DNA from: a virus
Lineage: Duplodnaviria > Heunggongvirae > Uroviricota > Caudoviricetes
Virus record (IMG/VR): IMGVR_UViG_2648501437_000009
Strand: one strand, 5' to 3'
Length of the DNA: 10,176 nt
Made by a program: the position numbers and the translations under genes
Shown here: piece after piece, positions 1 to 10,176 of the stretch
Numbering within the stretch: the first letter of the stretch is position 1
How the letters are laid out: each line of letters opens with the position of its first letter
Notes under the pieces: generated by a model
Told to the model about the DNA's origin: nothing
Databases searched by the model: none
What the model saw: the letters and a program-made list of their open reading frames with translations, nothing else

Positions 1-24
1 TCGGCGAAGGTAAGTTGATGACTC

Positions 25-1443
25 ATGATGAACCCTGTTCCATGGCTCCAGATGACAAACATGATCTCATATCAGGGACTTGTTCGCACCTTCCCTAGTG
101 AACTTGCAAAACTGGAAAAGCTAAAGAATCAGTATTCAAAGGAAGAATATAATAATCTTATCGCTCAAATAAATGAGCGTTATAAAGATCCAAAGCAACC
201 AAAGGCGAAAGGTTATTCGGATGATGCTGCCCAACGAATGATTGATCATCTGAATCAACAGAATGCGTTACTAAGTTCACAAGCTGAATTGACCGTTAAA
301 TTAAGTTCCTCTGAACAGGAACTGGTTAAGTGGCGTCAGCAGATTGCCGACCTGGAGTCACGACCGTCATCGAAATTAACCCAGGATCAGAAATCGCTTC
401 TCTTACACCGGGAAGAAATAACCGCGTTGATGGAGAAAAATGTTGCGATTGAAAAAAATAACAGGCTAATCAAGGAATCCGCCGAAATAGCTGCATGGCG
501 TGATTCATTGCAGGCTTCGATTGATAATCGTCAACAGGGGTATGACATTCAGATTGCTGGTTATGGGGTTGGCGATAAAAATCAGCAACGCCAGCAGGAA
601 TTACTGCGGATTGAACGTGAATATAACAATCAGCGTCTGCAACTTGAACGTGACTATGCAGATAAATCCCGTGGAATGTCAAATCATGTTTTTCAGGAGA
701 AAATGCAGGCTCTGAATGATGCTCTGGAACGAGAAAAAGAAATTGTCAGCCAGATAAACGAGCAGCTCGATATTCAGGCAGGAGACTGGATTAGTGGTGC
801 CTCCCAGGGATTCAATAACTGGCTGGATGACACTAAGGATATCGGTGCGCAGATAAAATCAACCACGACTCAGATGTTTGGTGGGATGACCGATGCGCTA
901 GGTGATTTTGTCACGACAGGCAAGGCAAATTTTCGTTCTTTCGCGACTTCCGTGATTTCGGATCTTAGTCGAATAGCATTAAAGGCTTCAATTACTGGGA
1001 TTTTCGACAGCATTAGTAACAGTTCTTCCGGAGGGATTTTAGGAACTATCGGGAGTGCTATTAGTAAATTTATTCCGAATGCAAAGGGCGGTGTTTATGA
1101 GTCTCCGTCATTGAGCACGTATTCGAACGGTATTTATGATTCCCCGCAATTTTTTGCTTTTGCAAAAGGGGCTGGTGTTTTTGGTGAGGCTGGACCGGAA
1201 GCCATTATGCCATTAACACGAACTTCCGATGGTTCTCTTGGTGTCAGAGCTATTAATAGTAAAAGTGGTAATGGAGGCGGAGATATTACCTATGCCCCTG
1301 TATACCAAATCACTATTCAAAATGACGGCCAGAATGGAGAGATTGGCCCTCAGGCAATAAAAGCACTTATGGGGATGGTTGATCAGCGGGTGCAGGGCAA
1401 TCTGTTAAATATGCGACGTGATGGGGGAATGTTAAGTGGCTAA
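25..1443 (+). CDS. Tail tape measure protein, C-terminal ~470 codons (gpH-like); possibly truncated or disrupted at the 5' end
   Basis: ORF 25..1443. N-terminal half is charged, Q/E/K/R-rich and heptad-like (coiled-coil, typical of tape measure proteins); C-terminal half is Gly/Ser-rich, ending ...NDGQNGEIGPQAIKAL...MRRDGGMLSG, which resembles the lambda gpH C-terminus as I recall it. Sits immediately upstream of M-L-K-I-J. In-frame TGA TGA at 16..21 prevents upstream extension in this frame. Confidence 0.8.
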   Translation: MMNPVPWLQMTNMISYQGLVRTFPSELAKLEKLKNQYSKEEYNNLIAQINERYKDPKQPKAKGYSDDAAQRMIDHLNQQNALLSSQAELTVKLSSSEQELVKWRQQIADLESRPSSKLTQDQKSLLLHREEITALMEKNVAIEKNNRLIKESAEIAAWRDSLQASIDNRQQGYDIQIAGYGVGDKNQQRQQELLRIEREYNNQRLQLERDYADKSRGMSNHVFQEKMQALNDALEREKEIVSQINEQLDIQAGDWISGASQGFNNWLDDTKDIGAQIKSTTTQMFGGMTDALGDFVTTGKANFRSFATSVISDLSRIALKASITGIFDSISNSSSGGILGTIGSAISKFIPNAKGGVYESPSLSTYSNGIYDSPQFFAFAKGAGVFGEAGPEAIMPLTRTSDGSLGVRAINSKSGNGGGDITYAPVYQITIQNDGQNGEIGPQAIKALMGMVDQRVQGNLLNMRRDGGMLSG

Positions 1444-1774
1444 TACGGAAGAATTTCACTGGTTACCAGAGGATGGAATGAAAACAGAAAATAAACCATC
1501 GATAAAAACTGTAAGATTTGGCGATGGTTATGAGCAACGAAGTCCAAATGGACTTAATCATTCTCTGCGCGTTTTCACCTGTGATTTCAAAGTTGAGGCG
1601 AATGAACGTGATTCATTTGAAAAATTTTTAGCCCGGCATGAAGGCTATAAATCTTTTTTTTGGCGGCCGCCGGGTATTAACAGAAAAATCAGAGTGGTGT
1701 GTCGAACGTGGTCAGCGACAGAACATATCACCTATACCGATTTTTCGTGTCAGTTTGACGAAGTGGTGATCTGA
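1436..1774 (+). CDS. M: Tail tip protein M (minor tail protein M)
   Basis: ORF 1436..1774 (GTG start overlapping the upstream stop). A likelier start is the in-frame ATG at 1478, preceded by GAGGA at 1468..1472. Contains the VRFGDGYEQR and KSFFWRPP motifs matching the gpM family (recalled lambda M: VRFGDGYSQR, KSFLWTPP). About 100-110 aa, the expected size and position between the tape measure gene and L. Confidence 0.85.
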   Translation: MANTEEFHWLPEDGMKTENKPSIKTVRFGDGYEQRSPNGLNHSLRVFTCDFKVEANERDSFEKFLARHEGYKSFFWRPPGINRKIRVVCRTWSATEHITYTDFSCQFDEVVI

Positions 1775-2472
1775 TGCAGGACATACAACAGGAAACGCTG
1801 AATGAATGCATTCGTGCGGAGCAGTCGGCCAGCGTGGTGCTCTGGGAAATCGACCTGACCGAGGTAGGCGGGGATCGCTACTTTTTCTGCAATGAGCAGA
1901 ACGAAAAAGGAGAGTCTGTCACCTGGCAGAGTCGTCAGTATCAGGCCTATCCCATTCAGGGGAGTGGATTTGAGATGAACGGCAAAGGTGCCAGTGCAAG
2001 GCCAACGCTGAAAGTATCTAATCTACACGGCATGGTCACCGGGATGGTGGAGGATTTGCAGAGTCTGGTCGGCGGAACAGTGGTCCGGCGTAAGGTCTAC
2101 GCTCGTTTTCTGGATGCGGTGAACTTCATTAACGGAAACAGTGAAGCCGATCCGGAGCAGGAGGTGATCAGCCGCTGGTGCATCGAGCAGTGCAGCGAAC
2201 TGAACGCGGTTAGCGCGGCCTTTGTGCTGTCCACGCCGACGGAAACGGATGGTGCCGTTTTCCCGGGGCGTATCATGCTGGCTAATACCTGCACCTGGAC
2301 CTATCGCGGTGATGAGTGCGGTTATCACGGTCCGGCGGTCGCGGATGAATATGACCAGCCAACGTCCGATATCACGAAGGATAAATGCAGCAAATGCCTG
2401 AGTGGCTGTAAGTTTCGCAATAACGTCGGCAACTTTGGCGGCTTCCTTTCCATTAACAAACTTTCGCAGTGA
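1774..2472 (+). CDS. L: Tail tip assembly protein L (Fe-S cluster-binding)
   Basis: ORF 1774..2472, 232 aa. ATG overlaps the M stop (ATGA at 1772..1776). Protein MQDIQQETLNECIRAEQSASVVLWEIDL...CSKCLSGCKFRNNVGNFGGFLSINKLSQ appears near-identical to lambda gpL from memory, including the C-terminal cysteine cluster. Same length as lambda L. Confidence 0.95.
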   Translation: MQDIQQETLNECIRAEQSASVVLWEIDLTEVGGDRYFFCNEQNEKGESVTWQSRQYQAYPIQGSGFEMNGKGASARPTLKVSNLHGMVTGMVEDLQSLVGGTVVRRKVYARFLDAVNFINGNSEADPEQEVISRWCIEQCSELNAVSAAFVLSTPTETDGAVFPGRIMLANTCTWTYRGDECGYHGPAVADEYDQPTSDITKDKCSKCLSGCKFRNNVGNFGGFLSINKLSQ

Positions 2473-3221
2473 ATCCCATGACAGAGACAGAATCAGCGAT
2501 TCTGGCGCACGCCCGGCGATGTGCGCCAGCGGAGTCGTGCGGCTTCGTGGTGAGAACGCCGGAGGGAGAAAGATATTTTCCCTGCGTGAATATCTCCGGT
2601 GAGCCGGAGGCGTATTTCCGGATGTCGCCGGAGGACTGGCTGAGTGCAGAAATGCAGGGTGAGATTGTGGCGCTGGTGCACAGCCATCCCGGTGATCTGC
2701 CCTGGCTGAGTGAGGCCGACCGGCGACTGCAGGTGCAGAGTGATTTGCCGTGGTGGCTGGTCTGCCGGGGGGCGATTCATAAGTTCCGCTGTGTGCCGCA
2801 TCTCACCGGGCGGCGCTTTGAGCACGGGGTGACGGACTGTTACACGCTGTTCCGGGACGCTTACCATCTGGCGGGGATTGAGATGCCGGATTTTCATCGC
2901 GGGGATGACTGGTGGCGTAACGGTCAGAATCTCTATCTGGATAATCTGGAGGCCACGGGGCTGTATCAGGTGCCGTTGTCATCAGCACAACCGGGCGATG
3001 TGCTGTTGTGCTGTTTTGGTTCATCGGTGCCGAATCATGCCGCCATTTACTGTGGTGACGGCGAGCTGCTGCACCATATTCCTGAACAACTGAGCAAACG
3101 AGAGAGGTATACCGACAAATGGCAGCGACGCACACACTCCCTCTGGCGTCACCGGGCATGGCACGCATCTGCCTTTACGGGGATTTACAACGATTTGGCC
3201 GCCGCATCGACCTTCGAGTGA
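2469..3221 (+). CDS. K: Tail tip assembly protein K (JAMM/MPN-like plus NlpC/P60-like domains)
   Basis: ORF 2469..3221 (GTG overlapping the L stop; alternative ATG at 2478 giving MTETESAIL...). Contains a JAMM-type motif HSHPGDLPWLSEAD and a downstream Cys/His region (DCYTLF...HH) typical of NlpC/P60 papain-like folds, the architecture described for lambda gpK. The 3' end overlaps gene I by about 100 nt in a different frame. Confidence 0.88.
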   Translation: MNPMTETESAILAHARRCAPAESCGFVVRTPEGERYFPCVNISGEPEAYFRMSPEDWLSAEMQGEIVALVHSHPGDLPWLSEADRRLQVQSDLPWWLVCRGAIHKFRCVPHLTGRRFEHGVTDCYTLFRDAYHLAGIEMPDFHRGDDWWRNGQNLYLDNLEATGLYQVPLSSAQPGDVLLCCFGSSVPNHAAIYCGDGELLHHIPEQLSKRERYTDKWQRRTHSLWRHRAWHASAFTGIYNDLAAASTFE

Positions 3222-3760
3222 AAACGGGGTCCGAAGCCATCCGGGCGCTGGCCATGCAGATCCCGGCATTTCGTCAGAAACTGAGCGACGGCTGGTACCA
3301 GGTACGCATTGCCGGGCGTGATGCAGGTGAAACCGAATTGTCTGCCCGTCTTAATGAGCCGCTGGAAAATGGTGCCGTGATCCATATCGTGCCGCGTCTG
3401 GCAGGAGCCAAAAGTGGCGGTGTGTTTCAGGCTGTGCTGGGGGCGGCTGTTATGGCGGTTGCTATATGGATGCCGGGGGTAGGAATTATGGCGAGTAATC
3501 TGCTGTTTTCTCTCGGTGCCAGTATGACGCTTGGCGGTGTTGCACAGATGCTGGCCCCTAAACCCAAAACCCCCCGCACACAGACAACGGATAACGGCAA
3601 ACAGAATACCTATTTTTCTTCACTGGATAACATGGTTGCCCAGGGCAATGTTCTGCCGGTTCTGTACGGTGAAATGCGCGTGGGGTCACGCGTGGTTTCT
3701 CAGGAGATCAGCACGGCAGACGAAGGGGATGGTGGTCAGGTTGTGGTGATTGGTCGCTGA
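3119..3760 (+). CDS. I: Tail tip assembly protein I
   Basis: ORF 3119..3760, 213 aa. MAATHTLPLASPGMARICLYGDLQRFGRRIDLRVKTG... followed by a hydrophobic Gly/Ala-rich segment and C-terminal ...NVLPVLYGEMRVGSRVVSQEISTADEGDGGQVVVIGR; matches the gpI family. Positioned between K and J. Confidence 0.9.
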   Translation: MAATHTLPLASPGMARICLYGDLQRFGRRIDLRVKTGSEAIRALAMQIPAFRQKLSDGWYQVRIAGRDAGETELSARLNEPLENGAVIHIVPRLAGAKSGGVFQAVLGAAVMAVAIWMPGVGIMASNLLFSLGASMTLGGVAQMLAPKPKTPRTQTTDNGKQNTYFSSLDNMVAQGNVLPVLYGEMRVGSRVVSQEISTADEGDGGQVVVIGR

Positions 3761-3778
3761 TACAAAATGTTTTATGTG

Positions 3779-3798
3779 AAACCGCCTCCGGGCGGTTT
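3779..3798 (+). promoter_or_regulatory. Perfect 8-bp stem / 4-nt loop hairpin in the I-J intergenic gap (possible weak terminator, attenuator or RNA stability element)
   Basis: AAACCGCC (3779..3786) - TCCG - GGCGGTTT (3791..3798) are exact reverse complements; followed by TATCGTTTAT (T-rich but interrupted), then GGAG at 3809..3812 and the J ATG at 3821. Confidence 0.4.
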
Positions 3799-3820
3799 TA
3801 TCGTTTATGGAGCATGACGA

Positions 3821-4798
3821 ATGGGTAAAGGCAGCAGTAAGGGGCATACCCCGCGCGAAGCGAAGGACAACCTGAAGTCCACGCAGCTGCTGAGTGTGAT
3901 CGATGCCATCAGCGAAGGGCCGGTTGAAGGTCCGGTGGATGGATTAAAAAGCGTGCTGCTGAACAGTACGCCGGTGCTGGACAGTGAGGGGAATACCAAT
4001 ATATCCGGCGTCACGGTGGTGTTCCGGGCAGGTGAGCAGGAGCAGACACCGCCGGAGGGATTTGAATCCTCCGGCTCCGAGACGGTGCTGGGTACGGAAG
4101 TGAAATATGACACGCCGATAACCCGGACCATCACGTCGGCAAACATTGACCGTCTGCGCCTGACCTTCGGTGTGCAGGCACTGGTGGAAACCACCTCAAA
4201 GGGGGACAGGAATCCGTCGGAAGTCCGCCTGCTGGTTCAGATACAGCGTAATGGTGGCTGGGTGACGGAAAAAGACATCACCATTAAGGGCAAAACCACC
4301 TCGCAGTATCTGGCCTCGGTGGTGGTGGATAACCTGCCGCCGCGCCCGTTTAATATCCGGATGCGCAGAATGACGCCGGACAGCACCACAGACCAGCTGC
4401 AGAACAAAACGCTCTGGTCGTCATACACCGAAATCATCGATGTGAAACAGGGCTACCCGAACACGGCACTGGTCGGCGTACAGGTGGATTCGGAGCAGTT
4501 CGGCAGCCAGCAGGTGAGCCGTAATTATCATCTGCGCGGACGCATTCTGCAGGTGCCGTCGAACTACAACCCGCAAAAACGGCACATACAGCGGTATCTG
4601 GGACGGAACGTTAAAACCAGCATACAGCAACAACACGGCCTGGTGTCTGTGGGATATGCTGACCCACCCGCGCTACGGCATGGGGAAACGTCTTGGTGCA
4701 GCGGATGTGGACAAATGGGCGCTGTATGTCATCGGCCAGCACTGCGACCAGTCGGTGCCGGACGGCTCTGGCGGCACGGAGCCGCGCATCACCTGTAA
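3821..4798 (+). CDS. J: J fragment 1 (N-terminal); J-like sequence ends near 4576, rest of the ORF is out-of-frame read-through
   Basis: ORF 3821..4798. After ...LQVPSNYNPQ the translation (KRHIQRYLGRNVKTSIQQQH...) loses J-like character while the +1 frame continues J. Confidence 0.6.
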   Translation: MGKGSSKGHTPREAKDNLKSTQLLSVIDAISEGPVEGPVDGLKSVLLNSTPVLDSEGNTNISGVTVVFRAGEQEQTPPEGFESSGSETVLGTEVKYDTPITRTITSANIDRLRLTFGVQALVETTSKGDRNPSEVRLLVQIQRNGGWVTEKDITIKGKTTSQYLASVVVDNLPPRPFNIRMRRMTPDSTTDQLQNKTLWSSYTEIIDVKQGYPNTALVGVQVDSEQFGSQQVSRNYHLRGRILQVPSNYNPQKRHIQRYLGRNVKTSIQQQHGLVSVGYADPPALRHGETSWCSGCGQMGAVCHRPALRPVGAGRLWRHGAAHHL

Positions 4799-5474
4799 TG
4801 CGTACCTGACCACACAGCGCAAGGCGTGGGATGTGCTCAGTGATTTCTGCTCGGCGATGCGCTGTATGCCGGTATGGAACGGGCAGACGCTGACGTTCGT
4901 GCAGGACCGACCGTCGGATAAGGTGTGGACCTATAACCGCAGTAATGTGGTGATGCCGGATGATGGCGCGCCGTTCCGCTACAGCTTCAGCGCCCTGAAA
5001 GACCGCCATAATGCCGTTGAGGTGAACTGGATTGACCCGAATAACGGCTGGGAGACGGCGACAGAGCTTGTGGAGGATACGCAGGCCATTGCCCGTTACG
5101 GTCGTAACGTCACGAAGATGGATGCCTTTGGCTGTACCAGCCGGGGGCAGGCACACCGCGCCGGGCTGTGGCTGATTAAAACAGAACTGCTGGAAACGCA
5201 GACCGTGGACTTCAGCGTGGGTGCCGAAGGGCTTCGCCATGTACCGGGCGATGTCATTGAAATCTGTGATGATGACTATGCCGGTATCAGCACCGGCGGG
5301 CGCGTGCTGGCGGTAAACAGCCAGACCCGGACGCTGACGCTCGACCGTGAAATCACGCTGCCATCTTCCGGCACCACGCTGATAAGCCTGGTTGACGGGA
5401 AGTGGCAATCCGATCAGCGTGGAGGTTCAGTCCGTCACCGACGGCGTGAAGGTGAAAGTGAGCCGTGTTCCTGA
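4656..5474 (+). CDS. J: J fragment 2 (central); J-like reading frame actually begins near 4581 and ends near 5399
   Basis: ORF 4656..5474 from first ATG ([28 protein letters not shown]...). The same frame is open and J-like upstream from about 4581 (GTYSGIWDGTLKPAYSNNTAWCLWD). After ...LISLVDG the tail ([24 protein letters not shown]) is out-of-frame read-through. Confidence 0.6.
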
Positions 5475-7302
5475 CGGCGTTGCTGAATACAGCGTGTGGG
5501 GGCTGAAGCTGCCGACGTTGCGCCAGCGCCTGTTCCGCTGCGTGAGTATCCGTGAGAACGACGACGGCACGTATGCCATCACCGCCGTGCAGCATGTGCC
5601 GGAAAAAGAGGCCATCGTGGATAACGGGGCGCACTTTGACGGCGACCAGAGCGGCACGGTGAATGGTGTCACGCCGCCAGCGGTGCAGCACCTGACCGCA
5701 GAAGTCACCGCAGACAGCGGGGAATATCAGGTGCTGGCGCGCTGGGACACGCCGAAGGTGGTGAAGGGCGTGAGCTTCATGCTTCGCCTGACCGTGGCAG
5801 CGGACGACGGCAGTGAGCGGCTGGTCAGCACGGCCCGGACGACGGAAACCACATACCGCTTCACGCAACTGGCGCTGGGGAACTACAGGCTGACAGTCCG
5901 GGCGGTAAATGCGTGGGGGCAGCAGGGCGATCCGGCGTCGGTATCGTTCCGGATTGCCGCACCGGCAGCACCGTCGCGGATTGAGCTGACGCCGGGCTAT
6001 TTTCAGATAACCGCAACGCCGCATCTTGCCGTTTATGATCCGACGGTACAGTTTGAGTTCTGGTTCTCGGAAAAGCGGATTACCGATATCAGGCAGGTTG
6101 AAACCACAGCCCGCTATCTTGGTACGGCGCTGTACTGGATAGCTGCCAGTATCAATATCAGGCCGGGCCATGATTATTATTTTTATATCCGCAGTGTGAA
6201 TACCGTTGGCAAATCGGCATTCGTGGAGGCTGTTGGTCAGCCGAGTGATGATGCATCCGGTTATCTGGATTTTTTCAAAGGCGAGATAGGGAAAACCCAT
6301 CTGGCTCATGAGCTGTGGACGCAGATTGATAACGGTCAGCTTGCGCCTGACCTGGCTGAAATCAGGACGTCCATTACGGATGTCAGCAATGAAATCACGC
6401 AGACCGTCAATAAGAAACTGGAAGACCAGAGTGCGGCAATTCAGCAGATACAGAAGGTTCAGGTTGATACAAATAATAACCTGAACAGCATGTGGGCTGT
6501 GAAGCTGCAGCAGATGCAGGACGGACGCCTTTATATCGCGGGTATTGGTGCCGGTATTGAGAACACCCCTGACGGCATGCAGAGTCAGGTGCTGCTGGCG
6601 GCGGACAGGATTGCGATGATTAATCCTGCGAATGGCAACACAAAACCGATGTTTGTTGGTCAGGGCGATCAGATATTCATGAACGAAGTGTTCCTGAAAT
6701 ATCTGACGGCTCCCACCATTACCAGCGGCGGTAATCCTCCGACATTTTCCCTGACACCGGACGGGCGGCTGACGGCGAAAAATGCCGATATCAGCGGTAA
6801 CGTGAATGCGAACTCCGGGACGCTCAATAATGTCACGATTAACCAGAACTGTCGGATTATGGGAAAGCTGTCTGTCAACCAGATTGAAGGCGATATTGTC
6901 AAAACAGTGGGTAAGGCTTTCCCGCGGGACTCCCGGGCACCGGAGCGGTGGCCATCAGGGACCATTACCGTCAGGATTTATGACGATCAGCCGTTTGACC
7001 GGCAGATTGTTATTCCGGCGGTGGCATTCAGCGGCGCTAAACATGAGAGAGAGCATACTGATATTTACTCCTCATGCCGTCTGATAGTGCGGAAAAACGG
7101 TGCTGAAATTTATAACCGTACCGCGCTGGATAATACGCTGATTTACAGTGGCGTTATTGATATGCCTGCCGGTCACGGTCACATGACGCTGGAGTTTTCG
7201 GTATCAGCATGGCTGGTGAATGACTGGTATCCCACAGCAAGTATCAGCGATTTGCTGGTTGTGGTGATGAAGAAAGCCACCGCAGGCATCAGTATCAGTT
7301 GA
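5392..7302 (+). CDS. J: J fragment 3 (C-terminal, includes the presumed receptor-binding region)
   Basis: ORF 5392..7302 (TTG at 5392 is an ORF-caller start; J frame resumes at about 5401 with [26 protein letters not shown]). 636 codons uninterrupted to the stop at 7300..7302. Confidence 0.65.
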
Positions 7303-7321
7303 ATTTTATAACCCAAATACG

Positions 7322-7346
7322 GGCGCCAGAAATGGCGCCTTTTTTA
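7322..7346 (+). terminator. Rho-independent terminator downstream of J
   Basis: GGCGCCA (7322..7328) - GAAA loop - TGGCGCC (7333..7339), a perfect 7-bp GC-rich stem with a GNRA-type tetraloop, followed immediately by TTTTTTATT (7340..7348). Lies 20 nt after the J stop. Confidence 0.8.
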
Positions 7347-7369
7347 TTGCAGAAAAGCGAGAGGTAATT

Positions 7370-7969
7370 ATGCGTAAATTATGTGCTGTTATTCTGTCTG
7401 CAGTAGTCTGGCTGGTCGCCGCTGGTACGCCAGCGAGTGCAGCAGAGCATCAGTCCACACTAAGCGCCGGGTATCTTCAGACCCATACTGATATGCCAGG
7501 CAGCGATGACCTGAAGGGCATTAACGTGAAATACCGTTATGAGTTTACGGACACGCTGGGGCTGATTACGTCATTCAGTTATGCCAATGCTGAAGATGAG
7601 CAAAAAACGCATTACAGCGATACCCGCTGGCATGAAGATTCCGTGCGTAACCGCTGGTTCAGCGTGATGGCGGGGCCGTCTGTGCGCGTGAATGAATGGT
7701 TCAGCGCGTATGCGATGGCGGGTATGGCTTACAGCCGTGTGTCGACTTTCTCCGGGGATTATCTGCACGTAACCGACAACAAGGGGAAAACGCACGATGT
7801 GCTGACCGGAAGTGATGACGGTCGCCACAGCAACACGTCTCTGGCGTGGGGAGCTGGCGTGCAGTTTAACCCGACCGAATCCGTGGCCATTGATATTGCT
7901 TATGAAGGTTCCGGCAGTGGCGACTGGCGTACTGACGGTTTCATCGTGGGTGTCGGTTATAAATTCTGA
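7370..7969 (+). CDS. lom: Lom outer-membrane protein (Ail/Lom/PagC/OmpX family beta-barrel); lysogenic-conversion moron
   Basis: ORF 7370..7969, 199 aa. RBS GAGAGG at about 7357..7362. N-terminal signal peptide MRKLCAVILSAVVWLVAAGTPASA-AEH. C-terminus ...VAIDIAYEGSGSGDWRTDGFIVGVGYKF ends in aromatic F, typical of OM beta-barrels, and matches the lambda Lom C-terminus as I recall it. Position after J matches lambda. Confidence 0.9.
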   Translation: MRKLCAVILSAVVWLVAAGTPASAAEHQSTLSAGYLQTHTDMPGSDDLKGINVKYRYEFTDTLGLITSFSYANAEDEQKTHYSDTRWHEDSVRNRWFSVMAGPSVRVNEWFSAYAMAGMAYSRVSTFSGDYLHVTDNKGKTHDVLTGSDDGRHSNTSLAWGAGVQFNPTESVAIDIAYEGSGSGDWRTDGFIVGVGYKF

Positions 7970-7995
7970 TTAGCCAGGTAACACAGTGTTATGGC

Positions 7996-8022
7996 AGCCC
8001 GCAGATTCTGGCGGGCTTTTTT
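7996..8022 (+). terminator. Rho-independent terminator downstream of lom
   Basis: AGCCCGC (7996..8002) - 8-nt loop - GCGGGCT (8011..8017), followed by a T-run (8017..8022). Lies 27 nt after the lom stop and 12 nt before the stf ATG. Confidence 0.75.
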
Positions 8023-8033
8023 GTGGGGTGAAT

Positions 8034-10176
8034 ATGGCAGTAAAGATTTCAGGTGTACTGAAAGACGGTGCAGGTAAACCGATACAGAACTGCACAATCC
8101 AGCTGAAAGCAAAACGTAACAGCACCACGGTGGTGGTGAACACGGTGGCCTCAGAAAATCCGGATGAAGCCGGGCGTTACAGCATGGACGTTGAGTACGG
8201 TCAGTACAGCGTTATTCTGTTGGTGGAGGGATTCCCGCCGTCACATGCCGGGACCATCACCGTGTATGAAGACTCCCAACCCGGTACGCTGAATGATTTT
8301 CTTGGTGCCATGACGGAGGATGATGCCCGTCCGGAGGCACTGCGCCGTTTTGAACTGATGGTGGAAGAGGTGGCGCGTAACGCGTCCGCAGTGGCACAGA
8401 ACACGGCAGCCGCGAAGAAGTCAGCCAGCGATGCCGGCACATCAGCCCGTGAGGCGGCAACTCATGCAACCGATGCTGCAGGCTCAGCACGTGCCGCCAG
8501 CACGTCAGCCGGACAGGCCGCGTCGTCGGCTCAGTCAGCATCTTCCAGCGCAGGAACGGCATCAACAAAGGCCACTGAAGCATCAAAAAGTGCTGCCGCT
8601 GCAGAGTCTTCAAAAAGCGCGGCTGCCACCAGTGCCGGTGCCGCGTCAACAAGTGCCGGGCAGGCCTCAGCCAGTGCCACCGCCGCCGGAAAATCGGCAG
8701 AAAGCGCCGCCTCGTCCGCTTCAACAGCCACAACGAAGGCTGGCGAAGCCACTGAACAGGCCAGCGCAGCAGCGAGGTCTGCTTCCGCAGCGAAGACATC
8801 TGAGACGAATGCGAAAGCGTCGGAAACCCGTGCAGAATCCTCAAAAACGGCAGCCGCATCGTCCGCCAGTTCGGCGGCGTCATCGGCATCATCTGCGTCT
8901 GCTTCAAAAGATGAGGCGACCAGACAGGCGTCAGCAGCAAAGGGCAGCGCCACGACGGCATCCACGAAGGCGACAGAGGCAGCTGGCAGTGCGACGGCGG
9001 CAGCTCAGAGCAAAAGTACGGCGGAATCCGCGGCAACGCGCGCCGAGACAGCGGCAAAACGGGCAGAGGATATTGCATCCGCCGTGGCGCTTGAGGATGC
9101 AAGTACGACGAAAAAGGGGATAGTACAGCTCAGCAGTGCGACCAACAGCACTTCCGAGTCACTGGCGGCAACGCCAAAGGCAGTAAAAGCAGCCAATGAC
9201 AATGCTGAGAAACGTCTGCAGAAAGATCAGAACGGTGCGGATATCCCTGGCAAAGACACCTTTACGAAAAATATTGGTGCCTGCCGTGCCTTCGGTGGGT
9301 CAGTAAGCACAACAACAGGAAACTGGACGACTGCACAGTTTATCGAGTGGCTGGATTCTCAGGGAGCATTTAACCATCCATACTGGATGTGCAAGGGTTC
9401 CTGGTCTTATGGCAATAATAAAATCATTACTGATACTGGCTGCGGTAATATTCATCTCGCCGGAGCTGTCATTGAAGTAATGGGGATAAAGTCAGCGATG
9501 ACGATCCGCATTACCACACCGACCACCTCCACTGGTGGTGGAACAACTAACGCCCAGTTTACCTATATTAATCACGGAACAGATTATTCACCTGGCTGGC
9601 GAAGGGACTATAACTCCAGAAATAAGCCAACGGCATCAGAGATCGGGGCGTTACCGTCAGGTGGAACAGCAGTATCATCAGTTAATTTGTCTTCAAAAGG
9701 TCGGGTAACCGCGCTGACAGACAATACGCAGGGGGCAACAGGTCTTGAGTTATACGAGGTGTATAACAACGGATATCCAACAGCGTATGGAAATATCATT
9801 CACCTGAAAGGGATGACAGCCGTTGGCGAAGGTGAGTTACTCATCGGCTGGAGTGGTACAAGCGGTGCTCATGCTCCGGCATTTATTCGTTCACGACGGG
9901 ATACGACCGACGCAAACTGGTCGCCGTGGGCGCAGCTTTACACCTCGGCTCATCCTCCTGCAGAGTTTTATCCAGTCGGTGCACCAATCCCGTGGCCATC
10001 AGATACCGTTCCGTCTGGTTATGCCCTGATGCAGGGGCAGACTTTTGACAAATCTGCTTACCCGAAACTTGCAGTTGCTTATCCGTCAGGCGTTATTCCT
10101 GATATGCGTGGCTGGACGATTAAGGGCAAGCCCGGCAGTGGTCGTGCCGTATTGTCTCAGGAACAGGACGGCATTA
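8034..10176 (+). CDS. stf: Side tail fibre protein Stf (partial, 3' end beyond window)
   Basis: ATG at 8034 with GGGGTG upstream. I translated the frame by hand: open to the window end with no stop (missing from the ORF track because there is no stop in-window). N-terminus [60 protein letters not shown] matches the lambda Stf N-terminus from memory. Followed by a long Ala/Ser-rich tract, the [26 protein letters not shown] motif, and a distal [37 protein letters not shown] motif typical of enterobacterial phage tail-fibre C-terminal regions. Confidence 0.9.
8380..9080 (+). repeat. Degenerate Ala/Ser/Thr-rich low-complexity repeat tract within stf (fibre shaft)
   Basis: About 230 codons dominated by A, S, T, K, E in recurring short units (e.g. 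SAxSAxxASxSA, [21 protein letters not shown]). GC-rich and stop-poor in several frames on both strands, which generates the long overlapping shadow ORFs 8257..9102(-), 8531..8965(-) and 8431..9123(+). Confidence 0.6.

Follow-up and report, generated by a model that had tools for sequence, protein, structure and literature searches.

Results

The window, by which we mean the whole 10,176-nucleotide stretch of virus record IMGVR_UViG_2648501437_000009, opens with the end of an insertion sequence of the IS5 family (positions 1–94). These terminal 94 bases, which end in ...ATCAGGGACTTGTTCGCACCTTCC, match annotated IS5 copies of phages P1, 434 and JL22 at 98–100% identity and are the only part of the element within the window, which thus includes neither its transposase gene nor its opposite end. 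The preferred target of IS5 is YTAR. The IS5 end abuts such a target, CTAG at 95–98, which is the insertion point in a tape-measure gene; in the intact relative L001, CTAG occurs once within the uninterrupted sequence ...gagagCTAGtgaacttg (15001–15004). Alignments with all of the Rac-type relatives begin only at base 95. The initial annotation had given bases 1–94 to the tape measure, whereas they are the IS5 end; this truncation of the tape-measure gene and two +1 frameshifts in J (see below) had both been overlooked. The exact 46-base IS5/tape-measure junction had no match in the GTDB set, which holds one genome per species.

The truncated gene is represented by a 3′ fragment on the plus strand (97–1443; G+C 0.43), comprising the last 448 of approximately 1077 codons of a Rac-type tail tape-measure gene. 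It matches the Pfam families Tape_meas_lam_C and TMP_4 as well as PHROG 24, and its DNA is 97–99% identical to the full-length 1077-aa genes of the prophages of MB50 (NZ_CP073949) and A30 (NZ_CP028745) and of Salmonella phage SPF_0923 (ON032529). The best-conserved part relative to H of phage lambda is formed by the last ~44 residues, at ~43% identity (counted from the alignment) vs. 27% overall. The next gene, M, encodes a Rac-type distal tail protein (1436–1774, plus strand; 112 aa; G+C 0.41; Pfam Phage_min_tail, 1e-31) that is 100% identical to M of MB50. A tblastn survey of phage records gave 556 M sequences, 10 of them at ≥99% identity and the remaining 546 at <60%, with the range between left empty. 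Beyond Escherichia and Shigella, the search for a donor of the AT-rich M turned up no candidate; the most similar proteins, at 43–44% identity, belong to Providencia and Oceanisphaera, and the genes neighboring these distant relatives are not lambda-like in DNA.

Downstream of M lie the genes of a lambda-type tail tip, all on the plus strand. L, a tail-tip hub protein, occupies positions 1774–2472 (232 aa; G+C 0.55; Pfam Phage_tail_L, 6e-98) and is followed by K, a tail-tip assembly protein (2478–3221, with the start coordinate borrowed from the 744-base K of MB50; Pfam Prok-JAB and NLPC_P60), which falls within a region (1752–3318) of 92% DNA identity to lambda. The tail-tip protein I (3119–3760; Pfam Lambda_tail_I) shares 79% of its residues with lambda I; a variable patch at ~3320–3500 is only 68–73% identical to lambda, A30 and SPF_0923 and 100% identical to MB50 and the lambda-like phage PhiR49_1. 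The central tail fiber gene J (3821–7302) is distributed over three frames (3821–4798, 4656–5474 and 5392–7302), having been split by two single-base insertions (+1) at ~4585 and ~5397, both of which stand out against all five references. Removal of the two inserted bases yields an open frame of 1159 aa that matches J of MB50 and A30 at 97–98% identity. The expected Pfam families, including the J domains, were recovered in lambda order and all above the curated cut-offs. As context outside the junction, a lom-like outer-membrane protein gene (7370–7969, plus strand; Pfam Ail_Lom, 1e-128) and the 5′ part of the side tail fiber gene stf (8034–10176, plus strand; Pfam phage_tail_N and Collar) complete the window, the stf frame being open from 7974 to 10175, i.e., to the window end. 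The reading frames of a functional tip are thus not intact: with its tape-measure gene cut by IS5 and its J frameshifted twice, this prophage copy looks defective and, judged from its reading frames, is probably dead.

The closest relatives of the window place it within a known prophage family. The MB50 prophage shows 96% DNA identity over window positions 95–8641, has the same gene order and resides at the Rac locus, as evidenced by its neighbors (ynaK, ydaY ... pin-type recombinase, ydfK, ynaM, uspF, ompN). Based on nucleotide identity and on synteny with such Rac-locus prophages (ynaK-ydaY ... stf-tfa-pin ... uspF-ompN), the window is assigned to the tail genes of a lambdoid prophage of the Rac type from Escherichia or Shigella, "Rac-type" being used in the sense of similarity to relatives at the Rac locus. 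The Rac attachment site lies next to ttcA/uspF/ompN; the window itself reaches neither an end of the prophage nor flanking host DNA. None of 5426 complete E. coli genomes matched the whole window at ≥99%, the best reaching 95.7–96.9%.

The initial annotation had noted a switch from AT-rich to GC-rich sequence and placed it within M near position 1650. The composition step is a true signal that lies well outside chance expectation. A likelihood scan for a single change-point over positions 95–6000 placed the change after base 1812 (2-lnL support interval 1775–1826), with 42.8% G+C to the left (95–1812) and 58.5% to the right (1813–6000); the log-likelihood gain was 60.3, whereas 200 base shuffles gave 2.7 on average and 7.7 at most. 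G+C in sliding windows stays at 0.40–0.46 up to ~1700 and at 0.52–0.66 across 1800–6000, while 60-base bins gave 0.42 (1620–1679), 0.47 (1680–1739), 0.43 (1740–1799) and 0.58 (1800–1859). The third codon positions follow the same course: 0.38 in the tape-measure C-terminus, 0.35 in M, 0.65 in L, 0.67 in K and 0.64–0.70 in J. The switch is therefore present, and close to the M/L boundary as had been proposed, but it coincides with the M stop and the L start, ~100–150 bases to the right of the position first given. A GGCGGCCGCCGGG run at ~1663–1675 is a local feature that may have caused the misplacement. The intact MB50 prophage likewise has a single dominant change-point, at 16718 (L start, 16680), where G+C rises from 47.0 to 55.5%. 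A second, left-hand boundary was sought in its tape-measure gene and upstream by binary segmentation, and from the terminase genes to M no change-point with a log-likelihood gain of >12 was found. This block averages 47% G+C with a range of 42–50%, so that the 43% of the window is the bottom end of a module of this kind. Lambda has no composition change at M/L (H C-terminus, 0.585; M, 0.558).

The similarity of the DNA to lambda and PhiR49_1 also changes abruptly at this place. It begins at window position 1752 and runs to 6319 at 92–96% identity; to the left of 1752, no DNA similarity to either phage was detectable. Within ~20 bases (zone 1752–1775), identity to lambda climbs from alignment noise to >90%. 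At the protein level, identity to lambda is 27% for the tape-measure C-terminus, 42% for M and 92% for L, which bears out the earlier impression that L, K, I and J are close to lambda and that M and the tape measure are distant from it. The breakpoint zone of this mosaic junction (1752–1826) comprises the 22-base 3′ end of M, the stop and start codons, which overlap (TGATG; 1771–1776), and ~50 bases at the 5′ end of L. Since the 22 bases at the end of M are alike in the Rac and lambda types, and may owe this to conservation of a C-terminal peptide (F-D/E-E/Q-V-V) instead of marking the exact crossover, the breakpoint can be placed no more tightly than ~1735–1826. The similarity change is abrupt, it sits at a gene boundary, and the modules on its two sides occur elsewhere in other combinations. 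Chi sites (GCTGGTGG), sought as a stimulator of recombination, numbered 0 in the window vs. 0.5 expected. A uniform G+C, or equal identity of both segments to one reference phage, would speak against a junction between tail modules of different ancestry as first suggested; a G+C step does exist, and the two segments differ completely in their identity to lambda. This suggestion was supported by the onset of similarity at 1752, by the lack of a step in lambda and by the finding that four types of M are joined to near-identical L.

The distribution of the junction was surveyed with a 1-kb query straddling M/L against the 5426 complete E. coli genomes. Full coverage of the query, i.e., the same junction, was obtained in 715 of these. 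A further ~3400 genomes, in which the right-hand block has a different left-hand neighbor, matched only from window position 1752 or a few bases on, and the right-hand block was present in 4141 genomes in total. Most of the partial matches start at query base 478, equivalent to window 1752, and others start at 1763, 1771 and 1822. The same junction was also identified in Shigella flexneri, in Escherichia ruysiae and in 10 deposited phage records. The junction is ancestral to a large prophage lineage and not an event peculiar to this sequence.

Four tape-measure/M types were distinguished (M G+C 0.41, 0.56, 0.52 and 0.50), the M proteins of which are 38–56% identical between types, while the L proteins to which they are joined are 91–99% identical. 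The breakpoints of the M types lie at ~1752, 1771 and 1822, within ~70 bases of the L start. Because the junction is widespread and near-identical L genes follow tape-measure/M modules of at least four unrelated types, M/L is a recurrent module boundary, which is what classic lambdoid mosaicism leads one to expect. A comparison of six Rac-type copies gave a mean pairwise DNA identity of 98.6% to the left of the joint (95–1751) vs. 94.8% to the right (1752–5774), and variable sites become denser, from 0.01–0.05 on the left to 0.07–0.23 on the right, where patches of 100% identity alternate between references.

Discussion

In our view, the step in this window is very probably a mosaic junction at M/L in a Rac-type prophage, at which a shaft module running from terminase to M meets a lambda-like tip block. 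The two blocks differ in ancestry, and the joint between them is confined to ~70 bases around the start of L. It has been inherited by a large lineage, and other shaft modules are attached to this tip block at almost identical positions. The left block forms the final part of a module for head and tail shaft, which averages ~47% G+C and is distant from lambda at the protein level. The right block, which takes in L, K and I as well as the greater part of J, has the composition (55–63% G+C) and the sequence of the lambda left arm. The joint may have arisen by recombination between lambdoid phages that were co-infecting or co-resident in one cell, and may have survived because it fits a functional boundary.

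Which of the two blocks was the newcomer is a separate matter. It is conceivable, though we consider it rather unlikely, that the L-J tip, together with lom and stf, was resident in a lambda-type phage and that the AT-rich head-to-M block came in, as opposed to the capture of a lambda-type tip by a Rac-type phage. The L-J block is the commoner partner, occurring in 4141 genomes vs. 715 with the Rac-type neighbor; against such a direction, the structural region of the intact relatives is mostly of the 47% G+C type, and the composition of the lambda arm is confined to ~6–9 kb from L onward. Both directions yield an identical present-day joint, and the data do not polarize the event.

Very little probability can be given to a history without exchange, in which H and M evolved much faster than L-K-I-J and their AT-richness drifted in place. 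Tape measures do in general evolve fast, and H and M are still recognizable homologs of those of lambda. However, rate differences of this kind do not sit well with the leap in lambda identity from noise to >90% over ~20 bases, with the coincident rise of third-position G+C (0.35 to 0.65), with the discreteness of the M types (≥99 or <60%, with none between in 556 phage records), or with one L being carried together with four different M types. Equally hard to credit is the notion that AT-richness stems not from ancestry but from the high content of Lys, Glu, Asn and Gln in a tape measure built as a coiled coil. The fragment is indeed rich in codons for these residues, yet the gap is largest at synonymous third positions (0.35–0.38 vs. 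0.65–0.70); M, a β-sandwich protein, is more AT-rich than the tape measure; the corresponding lambda regions have a G+C of 0.585 (H C-terminus) and 0.558 (M); and the entire terminase-to-M block of the intact relative has 42–50% G+C. An assembly chimera or an IS5-caused rearrangement, to which the IS5 end at 1–94 and J insertions that could be sequencing errors might point, can practically be dismissed, as the M/L junction is 1.7 kb away from the IS5 end and recurs base-for-base in 715 complete genomes, two other species representatives and phage genomes without IS5.

The mosaic junction at M/L can be viewed against the structure of the lambda virion, in which gpM forms a hexameric distal-tail ring stacked on gpV, the E-loops of gpM contact a trimeric gpL/gpJ ring electrostatically, and the C-terminal helix of gpH (residues 818–849) is located in the tip (PMC10721106). 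By analogy, M would close the shaft as its final six-fold ring, and L together with J would open the tip as its first three-fold ring. Shaft and tip might be swappable as units because these rings would meet via loosely specified electrostatic contacts. After the joint had formed, the tip block could have engaged in short-patch homologous exchange with the many lambdoid prophages that possess near-identical L-J, and the tape-measure/M block would have had only Rac-type partners for exchange.

More tentatively, and with somewhat less than even confidence, we propose that M/L is a preferred point of exchange that has been used independently several times and is located where six-fold symmetry gives way to three-fold in the siphovirus tail, that the highly conserved L-K-I-J tip circulates in Escherichia prophages as a cassette common to at least four otherwise unrelated shaft modules, and that the AT-rich shaft possibly came from lower-G+C Enterobacterales, e.g., the Morganellaceae.

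The significance of the joint beyond correct annotation is small, though it provides a clean and quantified case of shaft/tip modularity among lambdoid phages, with a conserved L-K-I-J tip that is common to several shaft lineages and still recombining. This may be of use as background for the engineering of host range by tail-tip swaps and for the typing of E. coli prophages. In practical terms, the element should be annotated as a Rac-type prophage and not as lambda.

Comparison with known systems leads to the same placement. The window matches lambda (NC_001416) in the H-M-L-K-I-J gene order and in Pfam families, with 92–95% DNA identity from the last 22 bases of M to codon ~830 of J and a tip block with the G+C of the lambda left arm. 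Unlike lambda, the window has a tape measure and M that are ~15 points lower in G+C, its relatives possess a full-length tape measure of 1077 aa rather than 853 aa, and the C-terminal receptor-binding part of J, from window position 6319 on, differs from that of lambda. The Rac prophage of E. coli is a remnant in K-12 and full-length at the same locus in MB50 and A30, where it is 96–97% identical to the window in DNA over 95–9205 and alike in junction, composition step and gene order; the copy in the window differs in the IS5 insertion within its tape-measure gene and in the two frameshifts of J. The tape-measure/M region is 98.2–98.6% identical in SPF_0923 and in Escherichia phages vB_EcoS-606R9, -683R6 and others (ON4705xx), none of which records contains IS5. 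In SPF_0923, L-K-I-J follows directly after M as in the window; its L-J block, however, is 93% identical and has another J C-terminus.

As to the literature on a Rac-type M/L joint, we found general accounts of Rac prevalence and of lambdoid mosaicism and no explicit description. Phages HK97 and HK022 are reportedly mosaic, with junctions at gene boundaries. The window resembles them in the abrupt change of similarity at a gene boundary, in alternative modules with a shared neighbor and in the differing composition of these modules, and there is no difference in kind. The joint is old and very common and represents an ordinary case of the familiar lambda-family patchwork, of which the window is a further instance in a very common prophage lineage.

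Results

The window opens within an IS5-family element, whose last 94 bases (1–94), together with the CTAG target directly after them (through 98), adjoin codon ~630 of the tape-measure gene; this gene is therefore interrupted or truncated, with the final 448 of its about 1077 codons in the window. A similarity search matched the ~95 bases at the left end to IS5 copies in unrelated phages, and the exact IS5/tape-measure junction was absent from all species-representative genomes searched. Because of the IS5 end, the open reading frame called at 25–1443 is partly IS-derived, and the AT-rich tape-measure segment that the initial annotation began at base 1 stands for 97–1443 and not for 1–94. The 448 residues encoded at 97–1443 were assigned by Pfam Tape_meas_lam_C and TMP_4 and by PHROG 24, and the M-type distal tail protein (1436–1774) by Pfam Phage_min_tail. 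These are followed by L (1774–2472), K (about 2478–3221), I (3119–3760) and J (3821–7302), with a lom-like gene 3′ of J and then the start only of a side tail fibre gene. Identity to the lambda (NC_001416) counterparts was 27% for the tape-measure fragment, 42% for M and 92% for L, which bears out the earlier impression of an L near-identical to lambda's beside a distant M and tape measure.

Relative to all five references, J contains single-base insertions at about 4585 (GGCA[C]ATAC) and 5397 (GAC[G]GGAAG), which divide it into three overlapping ORFs; deleting both inserted bases gave a 1159-aa J frame 97–98% identical to intact J proteins. The insertions reflect either genuine pseudogenisation or errors in sequencing. 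Unless they are the latter, the element resembles a decaying prophage, given IS5 in the tape-measure gene and the two changes in J.

A sliding profile revealed a step in G+C, from 0.40–0.46 over positions 1–1700 to 0.52–0.66 from ~1800 to 6000. A single-change-point likelihood scan of 95–6000 placed the change after base 1812 (2-lnL support 1775–1826), with G+C of 0.428 to the left versus 0.585 to the right, as anticipated by the initial annotation; the log-likelihood gain was 60.3, versus 7.7 for the best of 200 shuffles. Third-position G+C was 0.38 in the tape-measure fragment and 0.35 in M, and 0.65 in L, 0.67 in K and 0.64–0.70 in J; hence, the difference across M/L is concentrated at synonymous positions. 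The step is real, as evidenced by a gain far above that of the shuffles and by the third-position shift, and it coincides with the M stop/L start (1774) rather than, as first proposed, falling within M near 1650, since 60-base bins remained at 0.42–0.47 throughout 1620–1799 and reached 0.58 from 1800.

The two segments were also searched separately. The left 1650 bases had substantial coverage in only 10 phage records, every one at 98.2–98.6% (Salmonella phage SPF_0923, together with a group of Escherichia phages designated vB_EcoS-...R..), versus 270 records for 1780–6200, including lambda and many lambdoid and Stx phages, with a top identity of 96.5% among phage records. Direct alignment showed that DNA similarity to lambda and the lambda-like phage PhiR49_1 begins abruptly at 1752, 22 bases upstream of the M terminus, and extends to 6319 at 92–96%; left of 1752, neither contained alignable DNA. 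Both the G+C step and the unlike identity of the two segments therefore favour the suggested recombination junction near M/L, joining tail modules of different ancestry.

Among 5426 complete E. coli genomes, the best whole-window relatives were prophages, for example the one in strain MB50 (NZ_CP073949), which is 96% identical to 95–8641 and lies in a Rac-locus context (ynaK, ydaY, ... stf, tfa, pin-type recombinase, ydfK, ynaM, uspF, ompN). Its structural genes run from small and large terminase, DUF4055 portal, P22-family capsid protein, tube protein and ydaY to a 1077-aa tape measure, M, and then L-K-I-J-lom-stf-tfa. From terminase through M, G+C is 42–50% (mean 47.0%), and from L onward 55–63%; segmentation of the locus gave a single dominant change-point at 16718 (L starts at 16680) and no additional boundary upstream. 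Since all genes from terminase to M are of this composition, the AT-rich part of the window represents the closing portion of an extensive head and shaft module of non-lambda type. At the end of the MB50 prophage (within 26600–36400), a composite transposon of ISVsa5 (IS10-like) that carries tet(B)/tetR splits the pin-type recombinase gene and is thus a Tn10-type resistance insertion within a Rac-type prophage.

A 1 kb query across the boundary (1275–2274) had complete coverage in 715 of these 5426 genomes, and its right half alone was matched in another ~3400. Of the partial matches sampled at even intervals along the ranking, most started at query base 478 (window 1752), and a few at 1763, 1771 or 1822. 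The same joint and step were found in species representatives of Shigella flexneri and Escherichia ruysiae; beyond Escherichia/Shigella, the closest M relatives were 43–44% identical. Among phage records, 10 M relatives were at least 99% identical and 546 below 60%, with none in between; M therefore exists as discrete types. Eight elements compared comprised four tape-measure/M types, with M G+C of 0.41 (Rac type), 0.56–0.58 (lambda type), 0.52–0.53 (mEp460/cdtI type) and 0.50 (ECL27829 type, from an ovine E. coli prophage). M proteins of different types were 38–56% identical, and all four types were followed by L proteins mutually 91–99% identical. Similarity to the window started at ~1752 for the lambda type, ~1771 for the ECL27829 type and ~1822, within the first 18 codons of L, for the mEp460 type; these slightly different start points suggest distinct events clustered around the L start and not one unique crossover.

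Six Rac-type copies had a mean pairwise identity of 98.6% left of 1752 versus 94.8% right of it, and variable-site density rose at the boundary from 0.01–0.05 to 0.07–0.23. The window was about 100% identical to the prophage of E. coli A30 (NZ_CP028745) over 995–3100; over 3245–3900, identity to A30 was only 71–93%, against about 100% for both MB50 and PhiR49_1. This pattern probably reflects ongoing homologous exchange of short segments within the tip block (L-K-I-J), for which the many other lambdoid prophages sharing the block would serve as partners; the shaft block, ending with the tape measure and M, would have few.

Further local features were observed. Within L, Rac-type copies varied most at 1895–2045 (variable-site density 0.20), where the window was 100% identical to A30 and 79–87% to MB50, SPF_0923, PhiR49_1 and lambda. 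A short hypervariable patch in I (~3320–3500) looks like a small recombination patch: it was 100% identical to MB50 and PhiR49_1 but, with small indels, 68–73% identical to lambda, A30 and SPF_0923. A second break in composition and similarity lies in J at ~6000–6320: G+C falls from 0.66 (5701–6000) to 0.48 (6001–6300), and similarity to lambda, PhiR49_1 and SPF_0923 stops at 6319, while MB50 and A30 remain at 94–100%. In the side tail fibre gene, 8300–9200 has G+C of 0.60–0.64 and a very strong skew towards A over T (up to 0.51), and includes, at 8628–8678, a short 21-base tandem repeat; here the window lacks about 270 bases relative to MB50 and segments align in two registers, suggesting that the fibre shaft varies in repeat length.

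Discussion

The composition step is confirmed with corrected coordinates, and its interpretation as a mosaic junction is supported. Divergence in place, with no exchange, is excluded: the transition to lambda similarity is sharp, synonymous composition shifts at the same point, and the M types are discrete and reassorted. Nor does amino-acid composition account for the AT-richness, as the effect is greatest at third positions and H (tape measure) and M of lambda itself are GC-rich. The presence of the same joint, without IS5, in hundreds of independent genomes rules out both an artefact and a rearrangement driven by IS5. For the mosaic junction itself, the data fit transfer in either direction between shaft and tip modules.

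In the lambda virion, gpM forms a hexameric distal-tail ring with a tube-protein fold; one face sits on gpV, and on the opposite face E-loops in two conformations provide electrostatic seating on a trimeric ring of gpL and gpJ, with the C-terminal helix of gpH (818–849) within the tip (PMC10721106). The M/L gene boundary thus corresponds to the physical shaft/tip interface, where six-fold meets three-fold symmetry, and by analogy it is reasonable that this interface may tolerate partner exchange. Consistent with this idea, conservation of the tape measure relative to lambda H is highest at its extreme C-terminus, the last ~44 residues being about 43% identical (counted from the alignment) versus 27% overall.

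The Rac-type lineage is among the commonest E. coli prophage lineages, and its M/L joint already occurs in hundreds of annotated genomes as well as in phage records on deposit. The GC-rich stretch of the window has the composition of the lambda left arm, which is 51–63% G+C over its entire length and gave no change-point at M/L under the same segmentation procedure; J, in its receptor-binding C-terminal portion, differs in type from lambda J. The M/L joint is a textbook example of a lambdoid mosaic junction.
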